From contig JAITOY010000002.1 of assembly GCA_031289775.1 (NCBI GenBank), positions 28,337-92,336 on the forward strand: a stretch of 64,000 nt of DNA, given 5' to 3'. This DNA comes from Synergistaceae bacterium. GTDB lineage: Bacteria > Synergistota > Synergistia > Synergistales > Synergistaceae. Below are positions 1 to 51,715 of the stretch, piece by piece (the first letter of the stretch is position 1; every line of letters begins with the position of its first letter). The notes under the pieces were generated by a model. The model was not told where the DNA came from. It saw only the letters and a program-made list of their open reading frames with translations, and made no database searches. Made by a program: the position numbers and the translations under genes.

Positions 1-416
1 CGGGACTCCATGGTCGGCTGGAGCGCGACGCCGTTTTTGTAGTCGTTTTCGTTTACCGGTTCGCCCGGGTCGAATATGACGAAGTGCCGCGGGTTAGGGA
101 ACAAGCCGTTGTCGTTGATGTCGCCTCCTGTTATGTACGCCTTGACTATACAGTCCCCGTCGTCAGGGCAGTCGTCCCGCCGCACCCCATCGATGACCGC
201 CTGCCTGATGTTGGCGACGATGTCGCCGACCGCGATACCGCTTCGGAGAGCGCTGTCCTCGAGGCGTTTCAAGTGCTCGCCCAGCGCAAACGGCCTGCGG
301 CTGTAGCTCCGTATGCTGTCGAACACCCCGATCCCGCGTGTGATCACGAGATCCGTAACCGGCAGGGAGCATTCACCTGTCAGACGAAAACCCCCTTCGA
401 AAAAACAAATGGACAT
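1..416 (-). CDS. Class IV aminotransferase, N-terminal part (branched-chain or D-amino-acid aminotransferase family). The gene runs off the window start.
   Basis: The reverse-strand translation starting at the ATG (reverse complement of 414-416) reads MSICFFEGGFRLTGECSLPVTDLVITRGIGVFDSIRSY...FALGEHLKRLEDSALRSGI. This matches the conserved N-terminal fold-type IV PLP aminotransferase pattern (GdGvFE..r.y.....f.l.eHl.RL..Sa). It explains why + strand ORF 84..1649 reads through here as an artefact. Confidence 0.55.
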   Translation of the reverse strand, partial: MSICFFEGGFRLTGECSLPVTDLVITRGIGVFDSIRSYSRRPFALGEHLKRLEDSALRSGIAVGDIVANIRQAVIDGVRRDDCPDDGDCIVKAYITGGDINDNGLFPNPRHFVIFDPGEPVNENDYKNGVALQPTMES

Positions 417-560
417 ATTTTCGCAACTCCTTATTATAAAATTCGCCTCAGCAAGAGAAGTATACGACAATTTGTATGGTTTAGACAATCGCATGGTGCT
501 AAAATCTTATTGTTGCAAGCGCAAATTTGGAACGCCCTAAAATTAAGGGGAGGGAATCGC

Positions 561-1649
561 ATGTCTTCCAAGGTTCTCGCGCTTTTCCCGCGAGAAACTA
601 CGACTCAGCTCGGGCTTTTTGACGAGCGGTTCGCTATAATGCGAACGGAGATTCGCCACGACAGGGATGAACTTCTGGGGTTTAAGACGCCCGCTGATCA
701 GTGGAGCCACAGGCTGCGCGCAATCGAGGAGTCCCTTGCCGATTGCGGCGAGAGCGCAGGGGTCGACGCTGTAATAGCGCCCGCAGGGCCTGTTCTCGAC
801 CTAAATGGCGGGATATTCTCCGTGGATCGGGCTTTCCTGAAAAAAATACAGGATGGCCAGGGCTCGTTCCTCAACCTCGGCGCTCTTCTCGCAGACGCGC
901 TGGCGCTCGTGAGGGACGCCCGCGCTTTCGCGGTGGTTTCCCTCTCGGACGACGAGCTCGACCCCATCTCGCGGGTGACGGGCCTTCCGGGCGTCTTTTT
1001 CGGAAGCGCGATACGCACGTTTGTCATAAAGGACGTTATATACAGGGCGCTGCCGGAGACAGGACGCCCCTTCCAGGATGTTTCCGCAGTGGTCGCTTAT
1101 CTGGGCACGAATTTTATAATATGCGCATTTCGCGGCGGAAAAATTACCGACCTGAGCAATTCCAACGAACGCGGGCCGTTCTCTCTCACTAAAAGCGGGG
1201 CTATACCGGCAGCCGAGCTCATCAGGATGGCTTACAGCGGAATGTGGTCGATGGACAGCCTTGTGGATAAGCTTGGCCTGCATGGGGGGATGGAGAGCTA
1301 CACCGGGACTGACGACCTGGGCGGAATTGTCAGCCGCGCTTACGAAGGCGACGTGATCGCCGCGCTCATACTTCGCGGCATGGCATATCAGACAGCCCAG
1401 GAGATAGCTGCCCAGGCGGTCGCGCTCTCCGGCGACGTCGACGCGATTATCCTGACAGGGGTCTGCGCCGAAAGCGAAGTTTTCGTAAAACTCCTGAATG
1501 AGCGCGTCTCGTGGATCACAGACAGGGTCATTGTCTACCCGGAGGACGACGACCTGAGCACCGTGGCAAGATTTGCGTTCAGGGCGCTTAAAAACGAGGT
1601 TCCTGTGTTGTGCGCTTCGGATGAGACGAGAGATGGCGAAAACGCTTGA
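561..1649 (+). CDS. buk: Butyrate kinase
   Basis: GGGAGGGA sits 6 nt upstream of the ATG at 561. The 362-aa product is butyrate-kinase sized. It has acetate/butyrate kinase family motifs in the buk arrangement (…DELDPISRVTGLPGV…GPFSLTKSGAIPAAELIRMAYSG…DAIILTGVCAESEVFVKL…DDDLSTVARFAF), including the C-terminal 'DAIILTGG' type motif. The upstream part of ORF 84..1649 is antisense read-through. Confidence 0.75.
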   Translation: MSSKVLALFPRETTTQLGLFDERFAIMRTEIRHDRDELLGFKTPADQWSHRLRAIEESLADCGESAGVDAVIAPAGPVLDLNGGIFSVDRAFLKKIQDGQGSFLNLGALLADALALVRDARAFAVVSLSDDELDPISRVTGLPGVFFGSAIRTFVIKDVIYRALPETGRPFQDVSAVVAYLGTNFIICAFRGGKITDLSNSNERGPFSLTKSGAIPAAELIRMAYSGMWSMDSLVDKLGLHGGMESYTGTDDLGGIVSRAYEGDVIAALILRGMAYQTAQEIAAQAVALSGDVDAIILTGVCAESEVFVKLLNERVSWITDRVIVYPEDDDLSTVARFAFRALKNEVPVLCASDETRDGENA

Positions 1650-1721: not shown

Positions 1722-2993
1722 ATGGACATGAATGTTGACGGCAAGGGTTACAAGGCGCTGCTTGAAAGACGTCCGCTCAATGTACAGGCGCTTTATGGAG
1801 GAGAGCCGCTCGGTTTGGTCAGCGGCCGCGACATAGCGACGGCGGTGAAGGAGACTGGGGCGATAGTCCTCGCGGGCAACGCGCGGAACGCGCTCATTAT
1901 AAAAGGTCTCTTGAAGGCCGCGAAGGATCTGAACGCGCCGCTTCTCATAGAGCTCGCCAAGTCTGAGTGCACTTACTGCGGGGCGACATATGACAATATA
2001 CCGGACTACGCGTTGAAGTATTCGGCCGAACTGGGCCACGGGGTTATATTCGCTCTGCACGTCGACCATTACGCGATAAAAGGACACGATGACGTCAAAA
2101 AAGGCGTAGGCCATCTGTCGAAAATCGTGGCAAACGGCTTCACGTCCGTGGCGATAGACGCCTCGCACCTCGACGACTACGCAAACCTCTCCGCGACGCG
2201 CGACCTAGGCGCGTGGCTGCCGTCCGCCGTCGGGCTCGAAGTAGAGGTCGGCGAGATCAAAGGTGCGGGAGAACTGTCAACTGTCGAGGAAGCACTGTAC
2301 TTCATAGGCGGTCTGAACGCTTGGGGCGTGTTCCCCGACTACCTCGCCATATCGAACGGAAGCCTGCACGGCACATACGACATCTCCGCCGGCGTGAACG
2401 AAGGGATCGACCTGGATCGTACAAAGCAGATCGCGGACGCCATAGCCCCTTACGGAGTCTCGATCGCGCAGCACGGCATTTCCGGCACGCCGTTCAGCAA
2501 GGTCTCGAAGTTCTCGAAGTACGGCATAAACAAGGGCAACGTCGCTACGCTTTTCCAGAACGTCGTTTTCGGAATTAAAATGGATCCGGAGACCGGCAAC
2601 GCCGTGACGGACGGCGGCACGTACATAAAGGAGAGCGACAGAGGCATATCGGACGCGCTCTGGCAGCAGATTGTGGCCGAAGCCGACGGCAAGGGCATGA
2701 GCCGCAAGAGCGGCGACTACAAGAAGCTGAATCTGCCGTACCACGAGAGGATACTTGCGGAGCCGGACAATATCATCGGACGCATCGTGGACGAGGTCGC
2801 CGATTGGGGCAGGCGTTTCATAAAGGCGTTTGGCACAGAGGGCGCCGCCGAGAAGGTGATAGAGGTCGCGTCCCGCAGGACGGATCACAATTCGTCCCCA
2901 GAGCGCGTCATCAGGAGCCCAAGGGTCAAGTACGGCCCGGAGCAGGCCCCGAACAAGGCGAAGAGCGGCTCTGGCGGCAAATTTGACGATTAG
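1722..2993 (+). CDS. Class II (metal-dependent) ketose-bisphosphate aldolase family protein, FbaA-like, with a C-terminal extension
   Basis: AGGAGGAG RBS. Class II aldolase motifs occur in order: ALHVDHYA (LHxDH), SVAIDASHL, LEVEVGEIKGAGE (EiElG..gG.E) and LAISNGSLHGTYD (GnvHG.Y). About 60 extra C-terminal residues (…KYGPEQAPNKAKSGSGGKFDD) are atypical. Confidence 0.6.
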   Translation: MDMNVDGKGYKALLERRPLNVQALYGGEPLGLVSGRDIATAVKETGAIVLAGNARNALIIKGLLKAAKDLNAPLLIELAKSECTYCGATYDNIPDYALKYSAELGHGVIFALHVDHYAIKGHDDVKKGVGHLSKIVANGFTSVAIDASHLDDYANLSATRDLGAWLPSAVGLEVEVGEIKGAGELSTVEEALYFIGGLNAWGVFPDYLAISNGSLHGTYDISAGVNEGIDLDRTKQIADAIAPYGVSIAQHGISGTPFSKVSKFSKYGINKGNVATLFQNVVFGIKMDPETGNAVTDGGTYIKESDRGISDALWQQIVAEADGKGMSRKSGDYKKLNLPYHERILAEPDNIIGRIVDEVADWGRRFIKAFGTEGAAEKVIEVASRRTDHNSSPERVIRSPRVKYGPEQAPNKAKSGSGGKFDD

Positions 2994-5440: not shown

Positions 5441-5572
5441 ATAATATATAACGATATTTCGTAAAGTTCCTTCGGAGTCGGCAACGCGCGTCCTGCTGGC
5501 TCATCAACTTCATGTATTGACAAGTCATGGATTAATGGATACGATAATCGCGTTTTATATAATTAAACATAT

Positions 5573-6865
5573 ATGAAAATAGGTGTTTTGAGGGGTTCTT
5601 TCTTAATGAGCTATGATCGCTCGCACACTGGCGCTTGGCGTGAAAAGGAGCTTAGCCTGCGACAGGTAATGGAGAAATATCCGGAGGTATCTCCGTTCGT
5701 CATAATTAAAACCGACGCGCAGCGGCGCGGAGTCGAGTACGCCGACAGGGCGCTCGCCGCTGTCGATCCGGATATTCACCTCACCAAAGTCCGCAGCGAC
5801 TACAGCAACAAGGAGGATCTGACCCCAGTTTCCCTGATGATGAGGGACGGAACTTCCATCTGTACGAGCGTGGACGTGGGAGGAAATACCTCGTCCGGCC
5901 GCGATCCGTATCTTGTGGACGTCGTGGACGGTAAAGTTGTGCTCGTGGACGAAAACAGAGTCATCGAGGAGGTTTCTTACTGGGAAAAACCTGATTTCCA
6001 CGAAAAGGAGACTTCCAGGGGGACGCCGATGTGGCACGTCGTCTCCGTTCGTCCTCAGAGACTTTGCATCCATCCTCACCAGCACTGCGATTACTGGAAG
6101 ACCCCTGGTCATGGTTGTAAATTCTGCGCGATGTCGGCCGTCTACCATTCCGGCAACAAGCCGGAGCTGCTCGACGTGCGCGACATCGTGGAGAGCGTGG
6201 CTGAGGCGATAAAGGAGCCCGGTAGGAACGTCAACATATTTTTGACAGGAGGGACGCTCTGCGGCGGGGAAAATTTCCTCGACGACGAGGTGAATTACTA
6301 CGAGGAGATTCTGGGCGGTATCACGAAACTGTTTGGCGGCCGCCGCTTCCCGAGCCAACTGATCAGCACGGCGTTTTCCTTCGAACAGCTCCGGCGTCTG
6401 TACGACAACACGGGTTTGACTTCTTATACGGCCGATATCGAGGTGCTCAACAAGGATCTGTTCGCGTGGATCTGTCCCGGCAAAGCGGCCACGATCGGTT
6501 ACGACGAATGGAAGGAGCGCCTCTGCCGGGCTGTGGAAATCTTTGGAAAGGGCAACGTAAACACAGGCCTCGTCGTCGGGGTGGAGTTTGCTACGCCAAA
6601 CGGATTTGAGAACGAGGATGAGGCGCTGGAGTCGATCCTGGCAGAGGCCGATGAATTATCCTCGTGCGGGGTGGGCGTTGTAGGTTGTGTCTGGCACGTC
6701 TCCCCGGTTTCGATCTTTAAAAAACAAATTTCTCCCGGGTTGGAGTATTACGTCCGATTAGCCAAGGGCTTCGACAGGATTCGACGGAAATACGGCATTA
6801 ACGTGGATATGGATAATTACCGCCGCTGCGGTAACCATCCCGATACCGATCTCGGCAGGATTTGA
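5573..6865 (+). CDS. Radical-SAM-like protein with an atypical Cys motif (CX6CX10CX2C) and a glycine-rich GGT/GGE segment
   Basis: …CIHPHQHCDYWKTPGHGCKFCAMSAVYHSGNKPELLDVRDIVESV…NIFLTGGTLCGGENFL… resembles radical-SAM layout: a cluster-binding Cys triad, then ~35 aa, then a GGE-type SAM-binding motif, then TIM-barrel-like strands. The first loop is 10 residues instead of 3. The alternative start at 5606 (MSYDR…) has a GAGGGG RBS. The functional call is inference only. Confidence 0.4.
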   Translation: MKIGVLRGSFLMSYDRSHTGAWREKELSLRQVMEKYPEVSPFVIIKTDAQRRGVEYADRALAAVDPDIHLTKVRSDYSNKEDLTPVSLMMRDGTSICTSVDVGGNTSSGRDPYLVDVVDGKVVLVDENRVIEEVSYWEKPDFHEKETSRGTPMWHVVSVRPQRLCIHPHQHCDYWKTPGHGCKFCAMSAVYHSGNKPELLDVRDIVESVAEAIKEPGRNVNIFLTGGTLCGGENFLDDEVNYYEEILGGITKLFGGRRFPSQLISTAFSFEQLRRLYDNTGLTSYTADIEVLNKDLFAWICPGKAATIGYDEWKERLCRAVEIFGKGNVNTGLVVGVEFATPNGFENEDEALESILAEADELSSCGVGVVGCVWHVSPVSIFKKQISPGLEYYVRLAKGFDRIRRKYGINVDMDNYRRCGNHPDTDLGRI

Positions 6866-6880
6866 GGGGGCTGCAATTTA

Positions 6881-7369
6881 GTGGGAGTTTTGTTGAGCGT
6901 GTTGAACGAAGATTTTGGGCAGATCCTCGCGGATCCTGAGACGATAGCGGCTCTGGCCACCACGGGGAGCGACGGTTCCGTCCATGTCGCCTTCAAGGGA
7001 TCGTTTTGTCTTAGAGAAGACGGTAATCTGGAGTATGACGAAGTTATTGAGGCCTCGCAGACGAATAAAAACCTCGTATACTCGATATGGTTCGGGAAGA
7101 CCGTATCGATAAGCTTTCTGGCCAAAGACCACCGCAGTTTTCTCGTCATCGGGCGCCCGGTTCGCGCGCTCGTCTCGGGGCGGGAGTTCCGCGAACATTA
7201 CGTCGCCATACGCGGGAGGCTGGGGGACGTGGATCTTTCGACCGTCTGGATCATCGAACCAGTTTCTGTATGCGAGCAAAGCTTTGAGAAAAGAAGGACG
7301 GAGGAGGAAAACGCTCATCCGCTGTTTCGGCATCTTGACCGCCTGGCTGTCTCCGGAAGCGGACTTTGA
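6881..7369 (+). CDS. Pyridoxamine-5'-phosphate-oxidase-like (FMN-binding split-barrel) family protein
   Basis: GTG start with GAGGGGG upstream. The protein is 162 aa, with a general PNPOx-like/flavin-reductase-like pattern (…TGSDGSVHVAFKGSF…). This is a weak, size- and pattern-based call. Confidence 0.4.
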   Translation: MGVLLSVLNEDFGQILADPETIAALATTGSDGSVHVAFKGSFCLREDGNLEYDEVIEASQTNKNLVYSIWFGKTVSISFLAKDHRSFLVIGRPVRALVSGREFREHYVAIRGRLGDVDLSTVWIIEPVSVCEQSFEKRRTEEENAHPLFRHLDRLAVSGSGL

Positions 7370-7480: not shown

Positions 7481-8500
7481 ATGAGATATGAAGGGTTTAA
7501 ATTCAGATTTTCCCTTATTTCCTTTGTCGTCGCGTTGTTTTTTGCCGTTTACGGCGGGCCTTTTGCGAGCGTCACAGCGGCGGGAGAGACGAAAAAAGAC
7601 TACAAGGGATTGGTGATACATCTCGCGACCCAGCCCAGCCAGGTGCAGATTTCTCTTGCTGAGGAGCTCGGTTATTTCAAGGATGAATTCGGGGGTGACG
7701 GCATCACTTTCGACGTGCGCACCTTCCCGTCCGGTCCTCCGATTATCGAGGCGATCGCGGCCGGCAACATCGATATCGGCCAGGTCGGCAACCTGCCCGC
7801 CATTCAGGCGTTCAACAATAAAATCCCGATTAAAATAATAGGCGCTTATATGACCGACACCGGGAAAAGCCAGGGCCTGCTCTCCAGGAAGGGTTCCGGT
7901 ATCGAAAAGCTCGAGGATATCCGCGGCAGAAAGATCGGCGCCCAGATAGGTTCAGCGTCTCATTTCCTCCTGATGCAATATCTGCAAACGCTGAATTTAA
8001 CGGAGGACGACATACAGATCGTAAACCTGTCGTTCGGCGATATCAACGCGGCGCTGGAAGCCGGGAGCATTGACGGCGGTGTGAACCAGCTGCCGCAGAT
8101 GGCCTCTGTGCTTGAAAACGGGACGGCCACGTTGATTGCGGACGCGTCTGGCTACCCCCTTTCGCCGAGCACAGTCGTTGCGAGAACGGCGCTGCTTGAA
8201 AAATACCCTGAATTGATCCCCCGTATTTTAAAGACGTTCGATCGTGCCGTTCAGTACTGCATCACGAACGAGGACGACGCGATCCGCATCCTTCACGAGA
8301 GGAACGACGTGGCGGAAAGCGCCTACAAGGCTTCATTCACTAGCAACAGCTTTGCGCTGTTTCTCGACGCGAAACGCATCGAAGCGCTGAAGCTCAACGA
8401 GGTTTTTCTCAGGAAGGAAGGCACTATAACAGGCGTCGATATCGACAAGCTCGTTGATGCGTCGTTCCTCGAAGCGGCCGGTCTCAACACGCCTAAATAG
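7481..8500 (+). CDS. ABC transporter substrate-binding protein, NitT/TauT (SsuA/TauA/NMT1-THI5-like) family
   Basis: AGGAGAG RBS and a signal peptide (FSLISFVVALFFAVYGG). It has the SsuA/TauA-type periplasmic binding-fold pattern. It is first in a three-gene operon with the permease and ATPase that follow. Confidence 0.7.
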   Translation: MRYEGFKFRFSLISFVVALFFAVYGGPFASVTAAGETKKDYKGLVIHLATQPSQVQISLAEELGYFKDEFGGDGITFDVRTFPSGPPIIEAIAAGNIDIGQVGNLPAIQAFNNKIPIKIIGAYMTDTGKSQGLLSRKGSGIEKLEDIRGRKIGAQIGSASHFLLMQYLQTLNLTEDDIQIVNLSFGDINAALEAGSIDGGVNQLPQMASVLENGTATLIADASGYPLSPSTVVARTALLEKYPELIPRILKTFDRAVQYCITNEDDAIRILHERNDVAESAYKASFTSNSFALFLDAKRIEALKLNEVFLRKEGTITGVDIDKLVDASFLEAAGLNTPK

Positions 8501-8551: not shown

Positions 8552-9337
8552 ATGAACGCGCGTTCGAAGAACAGTGTCAAAGCGATCGCCATTGGGTTTA
8601 TCATGCCAGTCGCGTTCCTCGTCGCGTGGGAGATTCTCGGGCGGAGGGGGATCCTGAACAGCTCTATTTTCCCCACTCCTTCGCGTATTTTCACGTCATT
8701 TATGGACATGGTGAGCCGCGGCAGGATGCAAAAGCATCTTCTGATAAGCCTCCTCCGCGTCGTAAAGGGCTTTTGCGTGGGCTCGGTTCTCGGGTTGGTA
8801 ATCGGGACGGTCATCGGTCTTTCAAACGCGGCGAATGCCCTGATGTCATCCATTATAGGCCTCCTGAGGCCGATTCCGATGGTCGCGTGGATACCAGTGC
8901 TCATACTCTGGCTCGGCATCGACGAGGCCTCGAAGGTGACGCTGATTGCGATTGGCACGTTTTGGCCCGTCCTCATAAACACGAGCCGAGGCATAAAAAA
9001 CAGCGACAGAAAACTTCTCGAAGTGGGTATTATTCTCGAGAAAACCCGCTTACAGATGCTCGCTAAAGTGGTGCTTCCCTCCGCGTTTCCCTTTATCTTT
9101 ACTGGGCTTCGCCTTGGGGTCGGCAGCGCCTGGACGTGCGTTGTAACAGCCGAGGCCATTGCCGCCGCGTCCGGCATAGGTTATCTCATCATGTACGCGA
9201 GGGAGCTTTCGCAACCGCCAGTCATGTTCTCGGCGGTTATGACAATCGCGGTTGTCGGCCTTATTCTAGACGCGATTTTGCTTCGAGTCGAAAAACGCGT
9301 CCTTCGTTGGAACGAGCCGGACGAAGAACGGGGCTAG
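8552..9337 (+). CDS. ABC transporter permease (SsuC/TauC-type)
   Basis: It has six hydrophobic spans and the EAA-like permease loop (…LIAIGTFWPVLINTSRG…). Confidence 0.75.
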   Translation: MNARSKNSVKAIAIGFIMPVAFLVAWEILGRRGILNSSIFPTPSRIFTSFMDMVSRGRMQKHLLISLLRVVKGFCVGSVLGLVIGTVIGLSNAANALMSSIIGLLRPIPMVAWIPVLILWLGIDEASKVTLIAIGTFWPVLINTSRGIKNSDRKLLEVGIILEKTRLQMLAKVVLPSAFPFIFTGLRLGVGSAWTCVVTAEAIAAASGIGYLIMYARELSQPPVMFSAVMTIAVVGLILDAILLRVEKRVLRWNEPDEERG

Positions 9338-9347
9338 ATTAAAGGCC

Positions 9348-10139
9348 ATGGCCGAACATAACGGCGAGGACAAAAGCGTAGATATCCGAGGCGTGTCGAA
9401 AATTTTTACGCTGAGCGCGGGAGACCTTCCTGTGCTCGACAAGGTCGATCTGCATATCTCGAGCGGCGAGTTCATCAGCGTTGTCGGGTCGAGCGGGTGC
9501 GGGAAAAGCACTTTTTTGCGCATTATCTCGGGGCTGGAGAGCGCGACTGCTGGCGACGTGTTTATCGGCGGAAGAAAGGTCGATCGCCCGAGCGTGAAGA
9601 CAGGAGTCATTTTTCAGGAATCCAGGCTGTTTCCGTGGCTCTCTGTGGAACAGAACATCGCGTTCGGCATTCACAAAAAAGTGGATAAAGAGGGCAGGAA
9701 AAAACTTATATGCCAACACGTCGGCCTCGTGGGGCTCGCTGGTTTTGAAAACGCCTACCCAAGGCAGCTTTCCGGTGGTATGCGGCAAAGGGTCAGCATC
9801 GCTCGCGCGCTTATCAATAAACCGGGGGTATTGCTTTTGGACGAACCCTTCGGAGCGCTGGACGCTTTGACGAGAATCCACATGCAGAACGAGGTTCTGC
9901 GCATATGGAGCGCGGAAAAATCCACGATGGTTTTGGTGACGCATGACGTCGACGAGGCAATATTCCTGAGCGACCGCATAGTAGTGATGTCCGACAGGCC
10001 GGGTTATATAAAAAATGTGCTCGATGTCGATATTTCGAGACCCAGGGATCGCAGCAGCGTTCCTTTTATGGAGATCCGCAAAAAAATTTATACGCATTTT
10101 TTTGCGGAGTCAGCGCTCTCGCTGGAGTATTATCTATAA
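9348..10139 (+). CDS. ABC transporter ATP-binding protein (SsuB/TauB-type)
   Basis: Walker A GSSGCGKST, signature LSGGMRQRVSIARAL, Walker B LLLDEPFGALD and an H-loop VTHD are all present. Confidence 0.8.
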   Translation: MAEHNGEDKSVDIRGVSKIFTLSAGDLPVLDKVDLHISSGEFISVVGSSGCGKSTFLRIISGLESATAGDVFIGGRKVDRPSVKTGVIFQESRLFPWLSVEQNIAFGIHKKVDKEGRKKLICQHVGLVGLAGFENAYPRQLSGGMRQRVSIARALINKPGVLLLDEPFGALDALTRIHMQNEVLRIWSAEKSTMVLVTHDVDEAIFLSDRIVVMSDRPGYIKNVLDVDISRPRDRSSVPFMEIRKKIYTHFFAESALSLEYYL

Positions 10140-24527: not shown

Positions 24528-24603
24528 GAGCCGTTAGCTCAGTCGGTAGAGCACCGGATTTTTAATCCGGGTGTCCCGGGTTCAACCCCCGGACGGCTCA
24601 CCA
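24528..24603 (+). tRNA. tRNA-Lys (anticodon UUU)
   Basis: The 76-nt cloverleaf has a 7-bp acceptor stem (GAGCCGT/ACGGCTC), a D-arm AGCTCAGTCGGTAGAGC, an anticodon loop aTTTTTAAt (anticodon TTT), a T-arm GGGTTCAACCCCC and an encoded CCA. Confidence 0.85.
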
Positions 24604-24627
24604 AACATCCTTCTAAATCCCTTCAGC

Positions 24628-24703
24628 GGTCCCATCGTCCAGTGGTCTAGGACACCGCCCTTTCAAGGCGGCGACACGGGTTCAAACCCCGTTGGGACCG
24701 CCA
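24628..24703 (+). tRNA. tRNA-Glu (anticodon UUC)
   Basis: The 76-nt sequence GGTCCCATCGTCCAGTGGTCTAGGACACCGCCCTTTCAAGGCGGCGACACGGGTTCAAACCCCGTTGGGACCGCCA closely follows the canonical tRNA-Glu architecture. It has a 7-bp acceptor stem and the anticodon loop C-TTC-AA. Confidence 0.85.
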
Positions 24704-49160: not shown

Positions 49161-50444
49161 CTATGTCTTCACGATCTGCTTCCTGTGTTCAGTCGTCTTC
49201 GAAATTATCTCGTCCCTGTCCATTGTGAGATATCTGCCGTCTTTGTACAGGATTTTGCCGCCGACTATCGTCGCGCGGACGTCGCGGGACGATCCGGCGT
49301 AGACGAGGAACTCCGGCAGATTCGTCACGTCGGCGCCGACGTATGCCGGGCCGGCGATGTTGACTAGGGCGAGGTCGGCATGCCAGCCTTTTTTGATCAA
49401 GCCGACGCGCTCGAAGCCCATGCCGGACGCGCCCGCCACAGTCGCCATCTTCAGAACCTGCCGGGCGGAGAGAAGCGTCGGATCCTTGTGGTATCCCTTG
49501 TGCATCAGGGCGGCCGTGCGCATCTCGTCCCAGACGTCGAGTCTGTTGTTGCTCGCCGCGCCGTCCGTGCCCAACGCCACGTTCACGCCTTTCTCCAGCA
49601 TCTGTTTAATTGGGGCGTAACCGCTGCCCAGCTTCAGGTTGCTCTTTGGGTTGTGCACGAGCGTCACGTTGTCACGCTTAACCCTGTCGAGCTCGTCGAC
49701 CGGGTGCCAGACACAGTGGGCAAGCAGAAGTTTTGGAACGGCTAGCAACCCTGTCCCCTCGAGGTAGTCTGACGGCGAAATTTTATATTCGTCGCGGAAC
49801 GTTTCGAGTTCGCCCTCCGTTTCGAGCCAGTGGAAGTGGACGCCGAGTTTTTTGTCTCTGGCGATCGAAGCTATTTTTTCTATAGCGTCGCGCGGGACAG
49901 TGTAGGGAGCGTGGGGGCCAAGCTGAACGATGATCCTTCCGTCGCGGCCGTTAAACTCGTCGGCCAGCGCCAGATTTTCGTTGAGTTTTTTCGAGTCGTC
50001 GCCGGTGATTCCGCGGCAAAGAGCGGCCCTCATGCCGGCGCCGACCGTCGCGGCCGCTACCTCCCTCATGAAGTAGTACATGTCGGCGAAGCACGTCACG
50101 CCGCCGGAGATCATCTCGAGCAGAGCAAGTTCACCGCCGGATCTTATATGCTGGGGCAAAAGCCTGTTCTCGACTGGGAAAATCTTCGTCTGGAGCCACC
50201 GCATTAGGGGCAACTCCTCGGCGAGCCCGCGCAACAGCGTCATCGAAACGTGCGTGTGAGAGTTCACGAGCCCGGGAATTGCCGCCGTGTAGCCGCCTCC
50301 ATCGAAGAGGCGCTCGCCCTTTGCGCTTTTTGGCGGCAAAATCTCCGAAACAAGACCGCTGTCATTTATGACTATATCGCCGGCCTCGGCGTTTTGCCGT
50401 TCGCTGTCCCAGATGAGCACGTCACGTATTATGGACACTCTCAA
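49161..50444 (-). CDS. Amidohydrolase-superfamily deaminase (MTA/SAH deaminase MtaD-like)
   Basis: HxH metal motif (NSHTHVSM), …HAPYT…, HWLET/HFHW, …LGTDGAASNN…. It is transcribed ahead of ahcY on the same strand. Confidence 0.6.
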   Translation of the reverse strand: MRVSIIRDVLIWDSERQNAEAGDIVINDSGLVSEILPPKSAKGERLFDGGGYTAAIPGLVNSHTHVSMTLLRGLAEELPLMRWLQTKIFPVENRLLPQHIRSGGELALLEMISGGVTCFADMYYFMREVAAATVGAGMRAALCRGITGDDSKKLNENLALADEFNGRDGRIIVQLGPHAPYTVPRDAIEKIASIARDKKLGVHFHWLETEGELETFRDEYKISPSDYLEGTGLLAVPKLLLAHCVWHPVDELDRVKRDNVTLVHNPKSNLKLGSGYAPIKQMLEKGVNVALGTDGAASNNRLDVWDEMRTAALMHKGYHKDPTLLSARQVLKMATVAGASGMGFERVGLIKKGWHADLALVNIAGPAYVGADVTNLPEFLVYAGSSRDVRATIVGGKILYKDGRYLTMDRDEIISKTTEHRKQIVKT

Positions 50445-51715
50445 GCCCTCCAGTCGTTGAGGTATTTTTCCTGCTCGGCCGTCAATTTCTCAAGCTTCAG
50501 TCCAAGCGACTCCACCTTGTAATTCGCGACTATTTCGTCCAGGAAAGCCGGAACCGGCTGTAAGCCTTTTTTCAGGTCGGCCCCCTTCGCGATGTAAAGC
50601 GCGGAGAGGAGTTGGGTCGCGAAGCTCGTGTCCATGATTTCGACAGGGTGGCCGTCGCCGGACGCGAGGTTCACCAGCCGCCCTTCGCCCAGAAGATGCA
50701 GCCTCCTGCCGTCCCGAGCCTCATATGTGCGGATGCCCTCGCGGGACTCGTACACTTTCGCGGCCATCGTCTCGAGATCGGGGATACTGACCTCGACGTC
50801 GAAGTGCCCGGCGTTCGCCAGGAAAACTCCGTCCTTCATGCGAGCGAAGTGCTCGCCTCGGATGACCCGCGAGTTGCCTGTGACTGTCACGAAAACGTCG
50901 CCGACCTCGGAGGCCTGCGCGATGTCCATGACTCGGAAGCCGTCCATGTGGGCTTCGAGCGCCCTGTGCGCGTTTATCTCCGCGACGACGACGCTCGCAC
51001 CGAGGCCGTCGGCCCGCTTCGCCACGCCCTTGCCGCACCAGCCGTAGCCGATGACCACGGAGGTTCTGCCTGCTATGACGCAGTTTGTAGTGTTCATTAT
51101 GGCCTCCCAGACGGATTGTCCGGTACCATATCGATTGTCGAACAGGTACTTGCTCAGCGCGTCGTTCACGGCGAGCATTGGGAACTCGAGAAGCCCCTCG
51201 GCGTCCATGGCGCGAAGGCGCTTTATGCCGGTCGTAGTCTCCTCGCAGCCGCCGAGTATTTTGGGGGCGAGGCCGCGGTGCTTGTTGTGAATTAGCGCCA
51301 CGGCGTCCGCCCCGTCATCGATCAAAACGTCCGGTTCCCATGCCAGCATTTTGGCGAGGTTCTCCTCGTACTCCTCCGCGCTCATGCCGTGCCTGCTGAA
51401 TACGTGGACGCCGTACTCGGCGAGGGCCGCGCAGATCGGATCCTGAGTGGAGAGCGGGTTGCTCCCGGCCGCCGAGACCGTCGCGCCGAGATCCTTCAAC
51501 ACCTTCAGGAGACACGCCGTCTTCGCTTCAAGGTGGAGACATGCGGCCACAGTGCGCCCCTCGAGCGGTTTTTTGCCGCCGGCGAGCTCTTTCTCCTTGA
51601 TGAGCCTTATGACTGGCATATATTGCCACGCCCAGTCGATCCTCGCTCTCCCTGCCGGGGCGAGTCTTATATCGGCGACACCGTATTCCTCTCTTTTTAG
51701 ACCTTTTTGCTCCAC
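50441..51715 (-). CDS. ahcY: Adenosylhomocysteinase
   Basis: It has the NAD-binding GYGWCGKGVA motif and conserved SAHH blocks (…CLHLEAKTA…DDGAD…). Confidence 0.85.
   Translation of the reverse strand: MEQKGLKREEYGVADIRLAPAGRARIDWAWQYMPVIRLIKEKELAGGKKPLEGRTVAACLHLEAKTACLLKVLKDLGATVSAAGSNPLSTQDPICAALAEYGVHVFSRHGMSAEEYEENLAKMLAWEPDVLIDDGADAVALIHNKHRGLAPKILGGCEETTTGIKRLRAMDAEGLLEFPMLAVNDALSKYLFDNRYGTGQSVWEAIMNTTNCVIAGRTSVVIGYGWCGKGVAKRADGLGASVVVAEINAHRALEAHMDGFRVMDIAQASEVGDVFVTVTGNSRVIRGEHFARMKDGVFLANAGHFDVEVSIPDLETMAAKVYESREGIRTYEARDGRRLHLLGEGRLVNLASGDGHPVEIMDTSFATQLLSALYIAKGADLKKGLQPVPAFLDEIVANYKVESLGLKLEKLTAEQEKYLNDWRA

Follow-up and report, generated by a model that had tools for sequence, protein, structure and literature searches.

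A variant radical SAM enzyme paired with a split-barrel protein and a TauA/SsuA-type importer in a Synergistaceae bacterium

Results

Gene organization of the locus

The window analyzed here, a 64-kb stretch of DNA from a Synergistaceae bacterium, contains a module of five genes on the forward strand, with successive intergenic gaps of 15, 111, 51 and 10 nt. The first gene (5606..6865) encodes a variant radical SAM protein, and the second (6881..7369), located 15 nt past the stop codon of the first, encodes a 162-aa partner with a predicted PNPOx-like (FMN-binding-type) split β-barrel. They are followed by three importer genes, encoding an NMT1/SsuA/TauA-type secreted substrate-binding protein (7481..8500), an SsuC/TauC-like ABC permease (8552..9337) and an ABC ATPase of the NitT/TauT type (9348..10139).

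In a first-pass annotation, the radical SAM gene had been delimited as an open reading frame at 5573..6865 (+) encoding 430 aa. This reading frame is indeed present, but translation likely starts at M12, the ATG at 5606, which would give a product of 419 aa. This is also the length of the identical protein in the database, and a GAGGGG sequence is found approximately 10 nt 5' of this ATG. Two overlapping σ70-like promoter candidates, both of them consensus matches only, are found at 5517..5563 on the forward strand (TTGACA-17-TACGAT and TGGATA-16-TATAAT), within the 165 nt that lie between the gene and its upstream neighbor. No Rfam elements were found in this gap. If the hexamers at 5517–5563 constitute the promoter, the ATG at 5573 would lie at, or adjoin, the transcription start.

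Cluster loop and conserved residues of the radical SAM protein

The sequence CIHPHQHCDYWKTPGHGCKFC occupies residues 165–185 of the 430-aa product and contains cysteines at positions 165, 172, 182 and 185. The spacing is thus CX6CX9CX2C, with a loop of nine residues rather than the ten originally counted (CX6CX10CX2C). To judge conservation we used 120 homologs, with identities down to 50%. C172 is kept in 99% of them and C182 and C185 in 100%, whereas Cys165, originally taken as part of the motif, is an Asp in 75%. As Cys165 is variable among the homologs, the actual motif is CX9CX2C. Poor conservation of the cysteines had been named as a result that would count against a radical SAM protein; the opposite was found, and an arrangement kept across 120 homologs, down to 50% identity, is not a matter of chance. 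A pattern search, which also demands a small residue three positions past the last cysteine, detected CX9 in 90 of the homologs and CX8 in 20, and left 10 unmatched.

The canonical CX3CX2C motif is accordingly absent, its place being taken by CX9CX2C or, in a minority of homologs, by a CX8 loop. In the AlphaFold2 model the cluster cysteines (C172/C182/C185, CDYWKTPGHGCKFC, 6086..6127) sit between β1 and α1, that is, between strand 152–155 and helix 176–182 in 419-aa numbering (pLDDT 91–95), and it is in this loop that the SAM-binding [4Fe-4S] cluster is predicted to be held. Expanded loops are more widely spread than the few families to which they had been thought limited, as RadicalSAM.org contains clusters with spacings from CX4 to CX11, including CX8 and CX9 in Megacluster-4-6 (PMC9477430).

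Two further segments match SAM-binding-type motifs, by position and sequence only. FLTGG (6239..6253), at the end of β2, is found where a GGE-type SAM-binding motif would be expected, and its G227 is invariant. GLVVGVE (6566..6586) is predicted to lie on β5, at the position of the GxIxGxxE-type motif; its G332, V334, G336 and E338 are at least 97% conserved within the window family, and the last three of these residues are kept in the IsrB family too. A glycine-rich segment had been noted about 35 residues beyond the cysteines, and FLTGGTLCGGENF is present there, starting 38 residues past the last of them. An ICPGK motif (6470..6484) contains C301, which is invariant in both the window family and the IsrB family. 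In all, approximately 84 further positions are at least 97% conserved among the 120 homologs. The product ends in a YRRCGNHPDTDL tail (6818..6853) with an invariant C419, which is specific to the window family and absent from IsrB-type proteins. At the other end, a β-rich domain of approximately 150 aa (5606..6052), with no assigned fold, is shared with IsrB; the first cluster cysteine comes after about 160 residues, in agreement with the N-terminal extension of some 150 aa reported before.

Family placement

With the PF04055 radical SAM profile, the protein scores 29.1 bits (E 1.4e-6), marginally under the gathering score of 29.5, and most homologs carry a precomputed PF04055 match. A far stronger match was obtained with NCBIfam NF045502 'variant_rSAM', at 172.2 bits (cut-off 125, E 1.5e-50), the alignment covering residues 45–405 and model positions 7–356 of 357. 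Following the motif, β/α units alternate in the AlphaFold2 secondary structure, as the first-pass annotation had described, and the model has a partial or full (β/α) TIM-barrel core. The profile matches, the predicted fold and the conserved cysteines were the points on which the original radical SAM call had been staked, and it holds on each of them. On this evidence, we regard the gene product as a genuine radical SAM enzyme with an expanded cluster loop, predicted to cleave SAM.

The same call had left the protein outside any named family. Having passed the NF045502 cut-off and being a full-length homolog of IsrB, it is by profile and alignment a member of the named but uncharacterised family NF045502. 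Membership in the QueE, HmdB or ThiC families was rejected, as profile matches were absent. No papers on the window subfamily were found in the literature searched.

Comparison with IsrB and other relatives

IsrB (NflB, rcc02237) is the radical SAM component of the isethionate reductase IsrBHDK of Rhodobacter capsulatus, and genetic work has shown that anaerobic growth with isethionate as sulfur source depends on it (PMC11423573). We recovered the R. capsulatus isrBHDK genes (locus L026) by means of a primer sequence from the supplement of that paper. The primer 20-mer for isrB, TCTGGGACAAGGGCATCTAT, gave no match, and it was a second primer, in the NifH Cys motif, that matched; the R. capsulatus protein is not among the best 120 matches of an IsrB-type query (L007). 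With 427.8 bits on NF045502 and a CX8CX2C motif, R. capsulatus IsrB is a core member of the family.

The window protein and IsrB are homologous over their full length, including the N-terminal domain, and both match NF045502. A BLASTP comparison with R. capsulatus IsrB gave E 1e-21 over 379 residues at 24% identity, and hhalign of the two family profiles aligned 357 columns (E 2e-40, probability 100%). Forty positions, ICPGK among them, are conserved in both families, and the IsrB family (22–24% identical) keeps the cluster motif as CX8CX2C. Both proteins thus share the expanded cluster loop and ICPGK, as well as a sulfonate-type ABC transporter nearby and anaerobic settings. Similarity at the level of orthologs is nevertheless absent: identity is 24%, the window loop is CX9 and not CX8, the C-terminal YRRCGNHPDTDL tail is its own, and the NF045502 score is 172 bits, as compared to 422–428 bits for IsrB-type proteins. 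The gene context differs as well, since the window enzyme is paired with a split-barrel flavoprotein-like gene and not with NifH/D/K-like genes. No homologs of NifH, NifD or NifK were found by tblastn of the 64-kb window, and a NifH-like gene occurs in only 5 of the 30 large metagenome loci. The window family is a branch of its own.

The only biochemically characterised relative is BciD, which in green sulfur bacteria hydroxylates the C-7 methyl group of bacteriochlorophyllide c and which the literature places in the same wider group. IsrB/rcc02237 (24% identity to BciD) and Sll0785 have been reported as BciD paralogs, at 24–26% identity (PMC3613366). In a strict anaerobe, BciD hydroxylates one methyl group twice (PMC7242693), and the 2013 paper proposed water as the oxygen source (PMC3613366). 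BciD differs from the window protein in its tetrapyrrole substrate, and neither a transporter nor a flavoprotein partner has been reported for it.

There is also a weak but significant match to the profile of the MSMEG_0568/Sll0785 family (TIGR04043, Nit1C), at 52.6 bits over residues 105–338, far short of the cut-off of 303.7. This family, too, consists of variant radical SAM proteins that are uncharacterised and belongs to a gene cluster for nutrient starvation, but its context is nitrogen and cyanide assimilation, with a nitrilase. The BioB/HydE/HydG/PylB/ThiH/LipA structural class (SFLD 'biotin and thiazole synthase' subgroup; RadicalSAM.org Megacluster-4) differs from the window protein in its canonical CX3CX2C motif, shows only 12–19% identity and has no N-terminal domain of approximately 150 aa.

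The split-barrel partner

We regard the pairing of the enzyme with its partner as obligate. In 10 assembly loci, for which all called genes were read, the partner is directly downstream of the enzyme in 11 of 11 modules. A partner gene of approximately 155 aa holds the same position in 61 of 71 metagenome loci, and of the 30 loci that extend 5 kb or more to either side, 29 contain the partner. Enzyme and partner genes are in some loci separated by the gene for the binding protein. Six proteins of 567–621 aa, from a sister clade, are natural fusions of enzyme and partner; the C-terminal extensions of these long relatives, to which Pfam is blind, were matched by a profile of the partner family. 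The neighborhood of a fused relative is non-sulfur and biosynthesis-like, so that the enzyme-plus-barrel unit is a general catalytic module rather than one specific to sulfur, a point against the sulfur reading.

The partner is modeled as a split β-barrel with a pLDDT of 80.6. In a Foldseek search it matched HupZ, the FMN-binding protein Swol_0183, the Desulfovibrio FMN-binding protein and F420-binding proteins, with E-values from 1e-6 to 1e-3. The best of these matches is the heme-associated HupZ, while the FMN- and F420-binding barrels score nearly as high. PF01243 has no match in the window partner and weak matches in four of six homologs (best E 4.5e-4), and two of the six homologs gave weak matches to HutZ. 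The cofactor of the partner may be FMN, as we think probable, or heme.

Importer genes and genomic neighborhood

The binding protein scores 164.9 bits on TIGR01728 (SsuA_fam), a narrow margin of 1.4 bits above the cut-off of 163.5. Its closest solved relatives are TauA (6ssy, 5e-19) and SsuA (2x26, 6e-18). The NMT1/NitT/TauT class of transporters also carries nitrate, bicarbonate and pyrimidine precursors, an observation that speaks against a sulfur reading of the module. Importer genes occur in 23 to 25 of the 30 large metagenome loci (approximately 80%), so that the enzyme is usually accompanied by an importer in addition to its partner.

Of the other neighbors, metK and Cys/Met genes are frequent. 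Among the large loci, metK was found in 11 of 30 and a Cys/Met PLP enzyme in 8 of 30, and in 13 of the 80 metagenome loci metK is directly upstream of the enzyme gene. Single loci have nitrogenase-like genes, IsrB-type paralogs, a glycyl radical enzyme, MetNIQ or an alkylsulfatase as neighbors. In C. tyrobutyricum, an IsrB-type operon adjoining the module is controlled by a SAM riboswitch, and a second SAM riboswitch is located downstream of the module in locus L003. Known RNA elements were not detected on the module itself, neither in the window nor in eight related loci. Nor does the 64-kb window show any further evident gene for sulfur assimilation close to the module; both findings speak against a sulfur reading. 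With tblastn, no homologs of MetK, of the ThrC-like PLP enzyme from a related locus (L004), of GNAT or of alkylsulfatase were found in the window. Upstream of the module lie butyrate-kinase-like, class II aldolase-like, M15 peptidase and acyl-CoA ligase genes, which are not conserved neighbors. An acyl-CoA ligase is present in 7 of the 80 loci, but with approximately 28% identity and approximately 4 kb downstream.

Discussion

From the homology to IsrB, the type of importer, the recurrent neighbors and the precedent of BciD, we infer a sulfur role, a substrate class and a mechanism for the module. The reading that we favor, and to which we give about an even chance, is that an IsrB/BciD-type enzyme working with a second component, together with a TauA/SsuA-type importer, would provide strict anaerobes with sulfur from an organosulfur compound, most likely a sulfonate. 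This would probably be an uncharacterised oxygen-free route to organic sulfur. The enzyme would act as a two-component system with the split-barrel protein encoded 15 nt downstream, which most likely moves electrons to or from it, and the pair would be co-transcribed with the importer genes. In the proposed chemistry, the reduced cluster would split SAM to generate a 5'-deoxyadenosyl radical, and this radical would take a hydrogen atom from the sulfonate-bearing carbon. The substrate radical would then give one electron to the flavoprotein or the cluster and add water, and the 1-hydroxysulfonate so formed would collapse into an aldehyde and sulfite. The outcome would be that of the oxygen-dependent SsuD and TauD, reached without O2 through the water-derived hydroxylation that was proposed for BciD.

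SsuD/SsuE and TauD would thus be functional analogues and not homologs, with the same proposed net reaction from sulfonate to aldehyde and sulfite, but with unrelated folds and cofactors and a need for O2. Their layout may be likened to that of the module, as it too combines a catalytic protein and a small flavin protein with an SsuABC-type importer. For SsuD, induction is limited to conditions in which sulfate is unavailable. A sulfonate C-S bond is also broken by radical chemistry, without O2, in the glycyl-radical isethionate sulfite-lyase IslA/IslB. There, however, the radical SAM protein serves only as the activator of a large glycyl radical enzyme, and the window module encodes no such enzyme.

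It is possible, though we hold it only tentatively, that the family is itself a self-sufficient O2-independent desulfonating enzyme that needs no nitrogenase-like component. With its radical SAM catalytic subunit and a small flavoprotein, it would be the anaerobic counterpart of SsuD/SsuE. If so, self-sufficient desulfonation would imply that in IsrBHDK it is IsrB, and not only IsrDK, that performs or initiates the C-S chemistry. The published Isr proposal is a different one, namely reductive cleavage by the nitrogenase-like component (PMC13474568) and not hydroxylation by IsrB, and it speaks against the hydroxylation step.

That proposal is also an argument for a first alternative, which keeps the same system and sulfur role but invokes reductive chemistry: electrons fed by the partner would drive C-S cleavage to a hydrocarbon or alcohol and sulfite or, if the substrate is a methylthio or methylsulfonyl compound, to methanethiol, in parallel with Isr, where this is proposed, and Mar, where it is shown. 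Small FMN-binding proteins, for instance the Desulfovibrio FMN-binding protein, could be electron carriers, which would favor a role of this kind for the partner. The frequent O-acetylhomoserine-sulfhydrylase-type PLP enzyme and metK neighbors would fit a path from methanethiol to methionine and SAM. Yet hydrogen-atom abstraction by the 5'-deoxyadenosyl radical offers no obvious path to a net two-electron reduction, BciD, the only relative studied biochemically, is a hydroxylase, and the binding protein is similar to proteins that bind sulfonates and taurine rather than volatile thioethers. We consider the reductive version unlikely.

A second alternative, which we rate as more unlikely still, is that the imported and modified substrate contains no sulfur and is instead a nitrogen compound, a vitamin or pyrimidine precursor, or a tetrapyrrole or heme. 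In that case heme would be bound by the split-barrel partner, as it is by HutZ, which is encoded beside the radical SAM protein HutW/ChuW. HupZ does top the structural matches of the partner, and HutZ is weakly matched by two of its six homologs, but FMN- and F420-binding barrels match almost equally well, and the transporter is of the TauA/SsuA and not of a heme or siderophore type. The tetrapyrrole substrate of BciD, the nitrogen-starvation and cyanide-assimilation cluster of the related MSMEG_0568/Sll0785 family, a BioY gene inside one module and the non-sulfur context of the fused relative all point in this direction. Against it stand the recurrent neighbors, which are metK, Cys/Met PLP enzymes, MetNIQ and nitrogenase-like sulfur systems. 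Heme-uptake and nitrilase genes were not seen in the 10 fully read assembly loci; for the 80 metagenome loci, the screen covered a set list of other neighbor genes.

A role as maturase is one of two debated for IsrB, and we also considered, as a rather improbable third alternative, that the window protein is not a catalyst but builds or repairs the cofactor of another enzyme, in the manner of NifB. IsrB-type members, which adjoin NifHDK-like genes, frequently carry a NifB annotation, and activation of IsrHDK by IsrB has been left open in the literature. The module, however, offers no candidate client enzyme, just a 155-aa barrel and a transporter. There is no NifH, NifD or NifK in the window, and the scarcity of NifH-like genes in the large loci (5 of 30) argues in the same direction. 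The window enzyme also probably lacks the extra cluster-binding cysteines of NifB, which would count against a NifB-like function. Finally, a decayed, catalytically dead protein of the radical SAM fold, with a stretched loop and no cluster, would account for the marginal PF04055 score and for a loop three times the canonical length, but is highly improbable given that the three cysteines, TGG, GxVxGxE and approximately 84 other positions are at least 97% conserved in 120 homologs, that the genetically essential IsrB has the same type of loop and that metK is often co-transcribed with the enzyme gene.

The extraction of sulfur from sulfonates without O2 is partly understood in strict anaerobes, the known O2-independent desulfonating enzymes being Xsc, the glycyl radical system IslAB and, recently, IsrBHDK (PMC11423573, 2024). 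If the favored sulfonate-cleaving role were confirmed, the window family would represent a new enzyme class for anaerobic sulfur cycling. As a paralog of IsrB that mostly lacks a nitrogenase-like partner, it is also a simpler study system, in which one could test whether an IsrB-type protein cleaves C-S bonds alone and what purpose the expanded CX8/CX9 loop serves. Database names place members of the family in Clostridia, Synergistaceae, Desulfovibrio and spirochaetes, among them several named species that are culturable.

A radical SAM enzyme whose CX9CX2C loop is conserved

The 430-aa ORF at 5573..6865 (+) encodes a protein, here called the window enzyme, with cysteines at residues 165, 172, 182 and 185. 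The segment spanning residues 165–185 reads CIHPHQHCDYWKTPGHGCKFC, and FLTGGTLCGGENF follows 38 residues past it. The first-pass annotation had recognized this motif string correctly but described its spacing as CX6CX10CX2C, one residue more than the CX6CX9CX2C that we count. It had also left the protein outside any named family; however, the window enzyme scores 172.2 bits (cut-off 125) over residues 45–405 against the NCBIfam model NF045502 (‘variant_rSAM’), and thus belongs to a named model. PF04055 matches at E 1.4e-6 and 29.1 bits, slightly below its gathering score of 29.5. Motif class and profile family are already catalogued, and RadicalSAM.org Megacluster-4-6 contains CX8CX2C and CX9CX2C sub-clusters inside the biotin/thiazole synthase subgroup (PMC9477430), a placement that agrees with the fold matches.

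An AlphaFold2 model, with 45 sequences as input, predicts an N-terminal beta-rich domain followed by at least six beta/alpha units (pLDDT 91.3, pTM 0.90), the putative cluster loop having a pLDDT of 91–95. Among 120 homologs (50–100% identity), C172, C182 and C185 are kept in 99–100%, and the position of C165 is Asp in 75%. A pattern search of the same set returned a CX9 loop in 90 proteins and a CX8 loop in 20, with the pattern unmatched in 10. C301, within ICPGK, and C419, within the C-terminal YRRCGNHPDTDL, are invariant, and C372 is 90% conserved. Profile match, barrel-type fold and cysteine conservation, the three points on which the first-pass annotation had staked its radical SAM assignment, thus all turned out in its favor, and the window enzyme is almost certainly a radical SAM protein.

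Translation likely starts at M12 (ATG at 5606), giving 419 aa, since a Synergistaceae metagenome-assembled genome encodes a database protein of identical sequence that has this length, GAGGGG lies ~10 nt upstream of this ATG, and two promoter-like sites are found at 5517–5563, so that the ATG at 5573 would coincide with the transcription start. Wholly within the radical SAM gene, the complementary strand carries an ORF of 251 aa (5603–6358 (-)), which has the appearance of a shadow ORF in 57% GC sequence rather than of a gene.

Relation to IsrB

In R. capsulatus, the radical SAM protein IsrB and the nitrogenase-like enzyme are all needed for anaerobic growth with isethionate as sulfur source (PMC11423573). 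The isrBHDK locus (L026) was found via the second primer from the supplement of that paper, the first 20-mer being without a match. IsrB (L026:1380-2606) has the loop C-SYKAKGED-C-LF-C (CX8CX2C), carries an ICPGKA motif, and scores 427.8 bits on NF045502. The window enzyme is a full-length homolog of IsrB: 379 residues align, including the N-terminal domain, at 24% identity (E 1e-21), an alignment of the two family profiles spans 357 columns (hhalign probability 100%, E 2e-40), and 40 positions hold an identical residue that is at least 90% conserved in both families. A Lachnospiraceae locus (L007) carries, as neighbor of the module, a 407-aa radical SAM gene immediately upstream of NifH-, NifD- and NifK-like genes, the same order as in isrBHDK. 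Its product scores 422 bits on NF045502, and it has 22% identity and the ICPGKA motif in common with the window enzyme.

Judged by sequence, the window-enzyme family is a separate branch of the NF045502-type group, because it scores lower (172 bits for the window enzyme, against 422–428 for IsrB-type proteins), has a CX9 rather than the CX8 loop of IsrB, and ends in a C-terminal tail of its own that sets it apart from IsrB-type proteins. Homologs of NifH, NifD or NifK were not found anywhere in the 64 kb of the window. Among 1.84 billion representative proteins, relatives form 1251 clusters at E ≤1e-3 and 154 at E ≤1e-30, pointing to a wider group of modest size. In the literature that we searched, no paper describes proteins of this subfamily, or an IsrB-type enzyme working without a nitrogenase-like partner.

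A split-barrel partner

The partner gene (6881..7369 (+), 162 aa) starts 15 nt past the stop codon of the enzyme. Its product is modeled as a PNPOx-type split beta-barrel (pLDDT 80.6), with HupZ, FMN-binding proteins of Syntrophomonas and Desulfovibrio, and F420-binding proteins as closest structural matches. PF01243 gave no match to the window copy and matched four of six homologs, with weak support. Enzyme and split-barrel protein form an obligate pair. A partner-type gene lies downstream of the enzyme in 11 of 11 modules at the 10 assembly loci examined, which include Caproiciproducens, C. tyrobutyricum, a Desulfovibrio genome bin, Lachnospiraceae, C. paraputrificum and Treponema, among others. 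Of 80 metagenome loci, 71 have sufficient sequence, and in 61 of these the partner follows the enzyme immediately. Where flanks of at least 5 kb are available on either side (30 large loci), it was found in 29; in some loci the binding-protein gene stands between the two.

Six representative proteins of 567–621 aa (P0368, P0369, P0372, P0375, P0379, P0382), 31–39% identical to the window enzyme, have C-terminal extensions that match the partner profile (E 5.6e-10 to 7.5e-4), with fused genes in L076:1104-2807 and L077:2312-4015. These natural fusions argue that both proteins act as one unit, and a two-component unit is what we consider quite probable. The neighbors of fusion P0368 are a methyltransferase, a second radical SAM gene, a 2-hydroxyacid dehydrogenase and an ABC2 exporter fused to DegT, a setting that looks biosynthetic rather than one of sulfur acquisition, which makes the enzyme-plus-barrel unit a general catalytic module. 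P0393 (303 aa) combines the N-terminal third of the enzyme with the last two-thirds of the partner (partner profile E 7.6e-36) and is probably a deletion or assembly chimera.

Importer and neighboring genes

Downstream of the partner follow genes for a secreted binding protein, a permease and an ATPase (intergenic gaps 111, 51 and 10 nt). The binding protein narrowly passes TIGR01728, the SsuA family (164.9 bits, cut-off 163.5), and its nearest solved structures are TauA (5e-19) and SsuA (6e-18). The enzyme is usually paired with such a sulfonate-type importer: in the large metagenome loci, binding protein, permease and ATPase are present in 23, 25 and 25 of 30, metK in 11, a Cys/Met PLP enzyme in 8, a GNAT acetyltransferase in 7 and a NifH-like gene in 5. 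Immediately upstream on the same strand, metK is found in 13 of the 80 loci (L078-L157); its frequent co-transcription fits SAM consumption at each turnover, or expression under sulfur scarcity. A GNAT gene immediately follows the partner in 9 of the same 80, making it a recurrent third component, possibly for N-acetylation of an amino-sulfonate. In Treponema (L073), a GNAT gene lies upstream of the enzyme.

At individual loci the module is joined by MetNIQ, by a glycyl radical enzyme and its activase, by an alkylsulfatase, by IsrB-type paralogs or by a further copy of the module itself. L075:1-21251 is a dense sulfur-acquisition island, with two paralogous modules (enzyme, partner, ABC transporter) in tandem adjoining a NifD/K-like gene, a glycyl radical enzyme and activase, metK and MetNIQ. 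L072:4993-13108 has the biotin transporter gene BioY inside the module, between partner and binding protein, and, after the ATPase, another gene of the radical SAM family, with a PLP-dependent decarboxylase and a GNAT next in line. In Caproiciproducens, 5–9 kb upstream of the module, L001:587-5147 holds ThiS-like, ThiF-like and JAB genes, TusA, a Cys/Met PLP enzyme and a small sulfite-reductase-like protein, a set that resembles sulfur-carrier-protein pathways by which homocysteine and methionine are made.

Proposed function

We lean slightly toward acquisition of organic sulfur as the role of the enzyme, and infer that strict anaerobes use the module to draw sulfur from an organosulfur compound that they import, with a sulfonate as the likeliest candidate. 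BciD, Sll0785 and IsrB are reported to be paralogs of one another (PMC3613366), BciD being the sole biochemically studied member of this group; it performs a double hydroxylation of a methyl group in a strict anaerobe (PMC7242693), for which water was proposed as the oxygen source (PMC3613366, 2013). BciD-like chemistry is what we favor for the window enzyme. A hydrogen atom would be taken from the sulfonate-bearing carbon, the substrate radical would give up one electron, passed on to the partner or returned to the cluster, and water added after this oxidation would yield a 1-hydroxysulfonate that would collapse to an aldehyde and sulfite, the products of SsuD and TauD, but without O2. Hydroxylation as the specific mechanism, drawn by analogy, is nevertheless doubtful. 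Alternatively, the C–S bond could be cleaved reductively, or the substrate could be free of sulfur, including a heme or tetrapyrrole, as suggested by the resemblance of the partner to HupZ/HutZ; a maturase role and, last, a catalytically dead enzyme are the remaining rivals. With its partner, the window enzyme offers a simple two-protein system to probe IsrB-type radical SAM function, and also a handle on O2-free desulfonation by anaerobes.

RNA control and the remainder of the window

Known RNA elements were not found in front of the module in the window and the related loci searched. In C. tyrobutyricum (L004), a SAM riboswitch (92 bits) controls the operon adjoining the module (L004:11898-17242), which encodes a NifH-like ATPase, a ThrC-like PLP enzyme, an NMT1-type binding protein, GNAT and an IsrB-type variant radical SAM enzyme. 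As this 17-kb locus has no NifD/K-like gene, the NifH-like reductase may act directly for the radical SAM enzyme. A SAM riboswitch also lies at L003:12083-12190, in another assembly locus.

Beyond these genes, the window consists of ordinary chromosomal sequence, with tRNA synthetase genes, mutS, mutL and a histidine kinase among its content. Upstream of the module, a same-strand block comprises a butyrate-kinase-like ORF (84-1649 (+), 521 aa, with a ~160-aa N-terminal extension past the kinase profile), an unusually long class II fructose-bisphosphate-aldolase-like ORF (1722-2993 (+), 423 aa, far under all equivalog cut-offs), an M15 peptidase and an acyl-CoA ligase; the block is not conserved beside the module in other loci. 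At 49161-51715 (-), 43 kb from the radical SAM gene, an S-adenosylhomocysteine hydrolase gene adjoins an amidohydrolase that may be a nucleoside deaminase for SAM by-products. A tandem pair of tRNAs, tRNA-Lys(ttt) and tRNA-Glu(ttc), occupies 24528-24703 (+).
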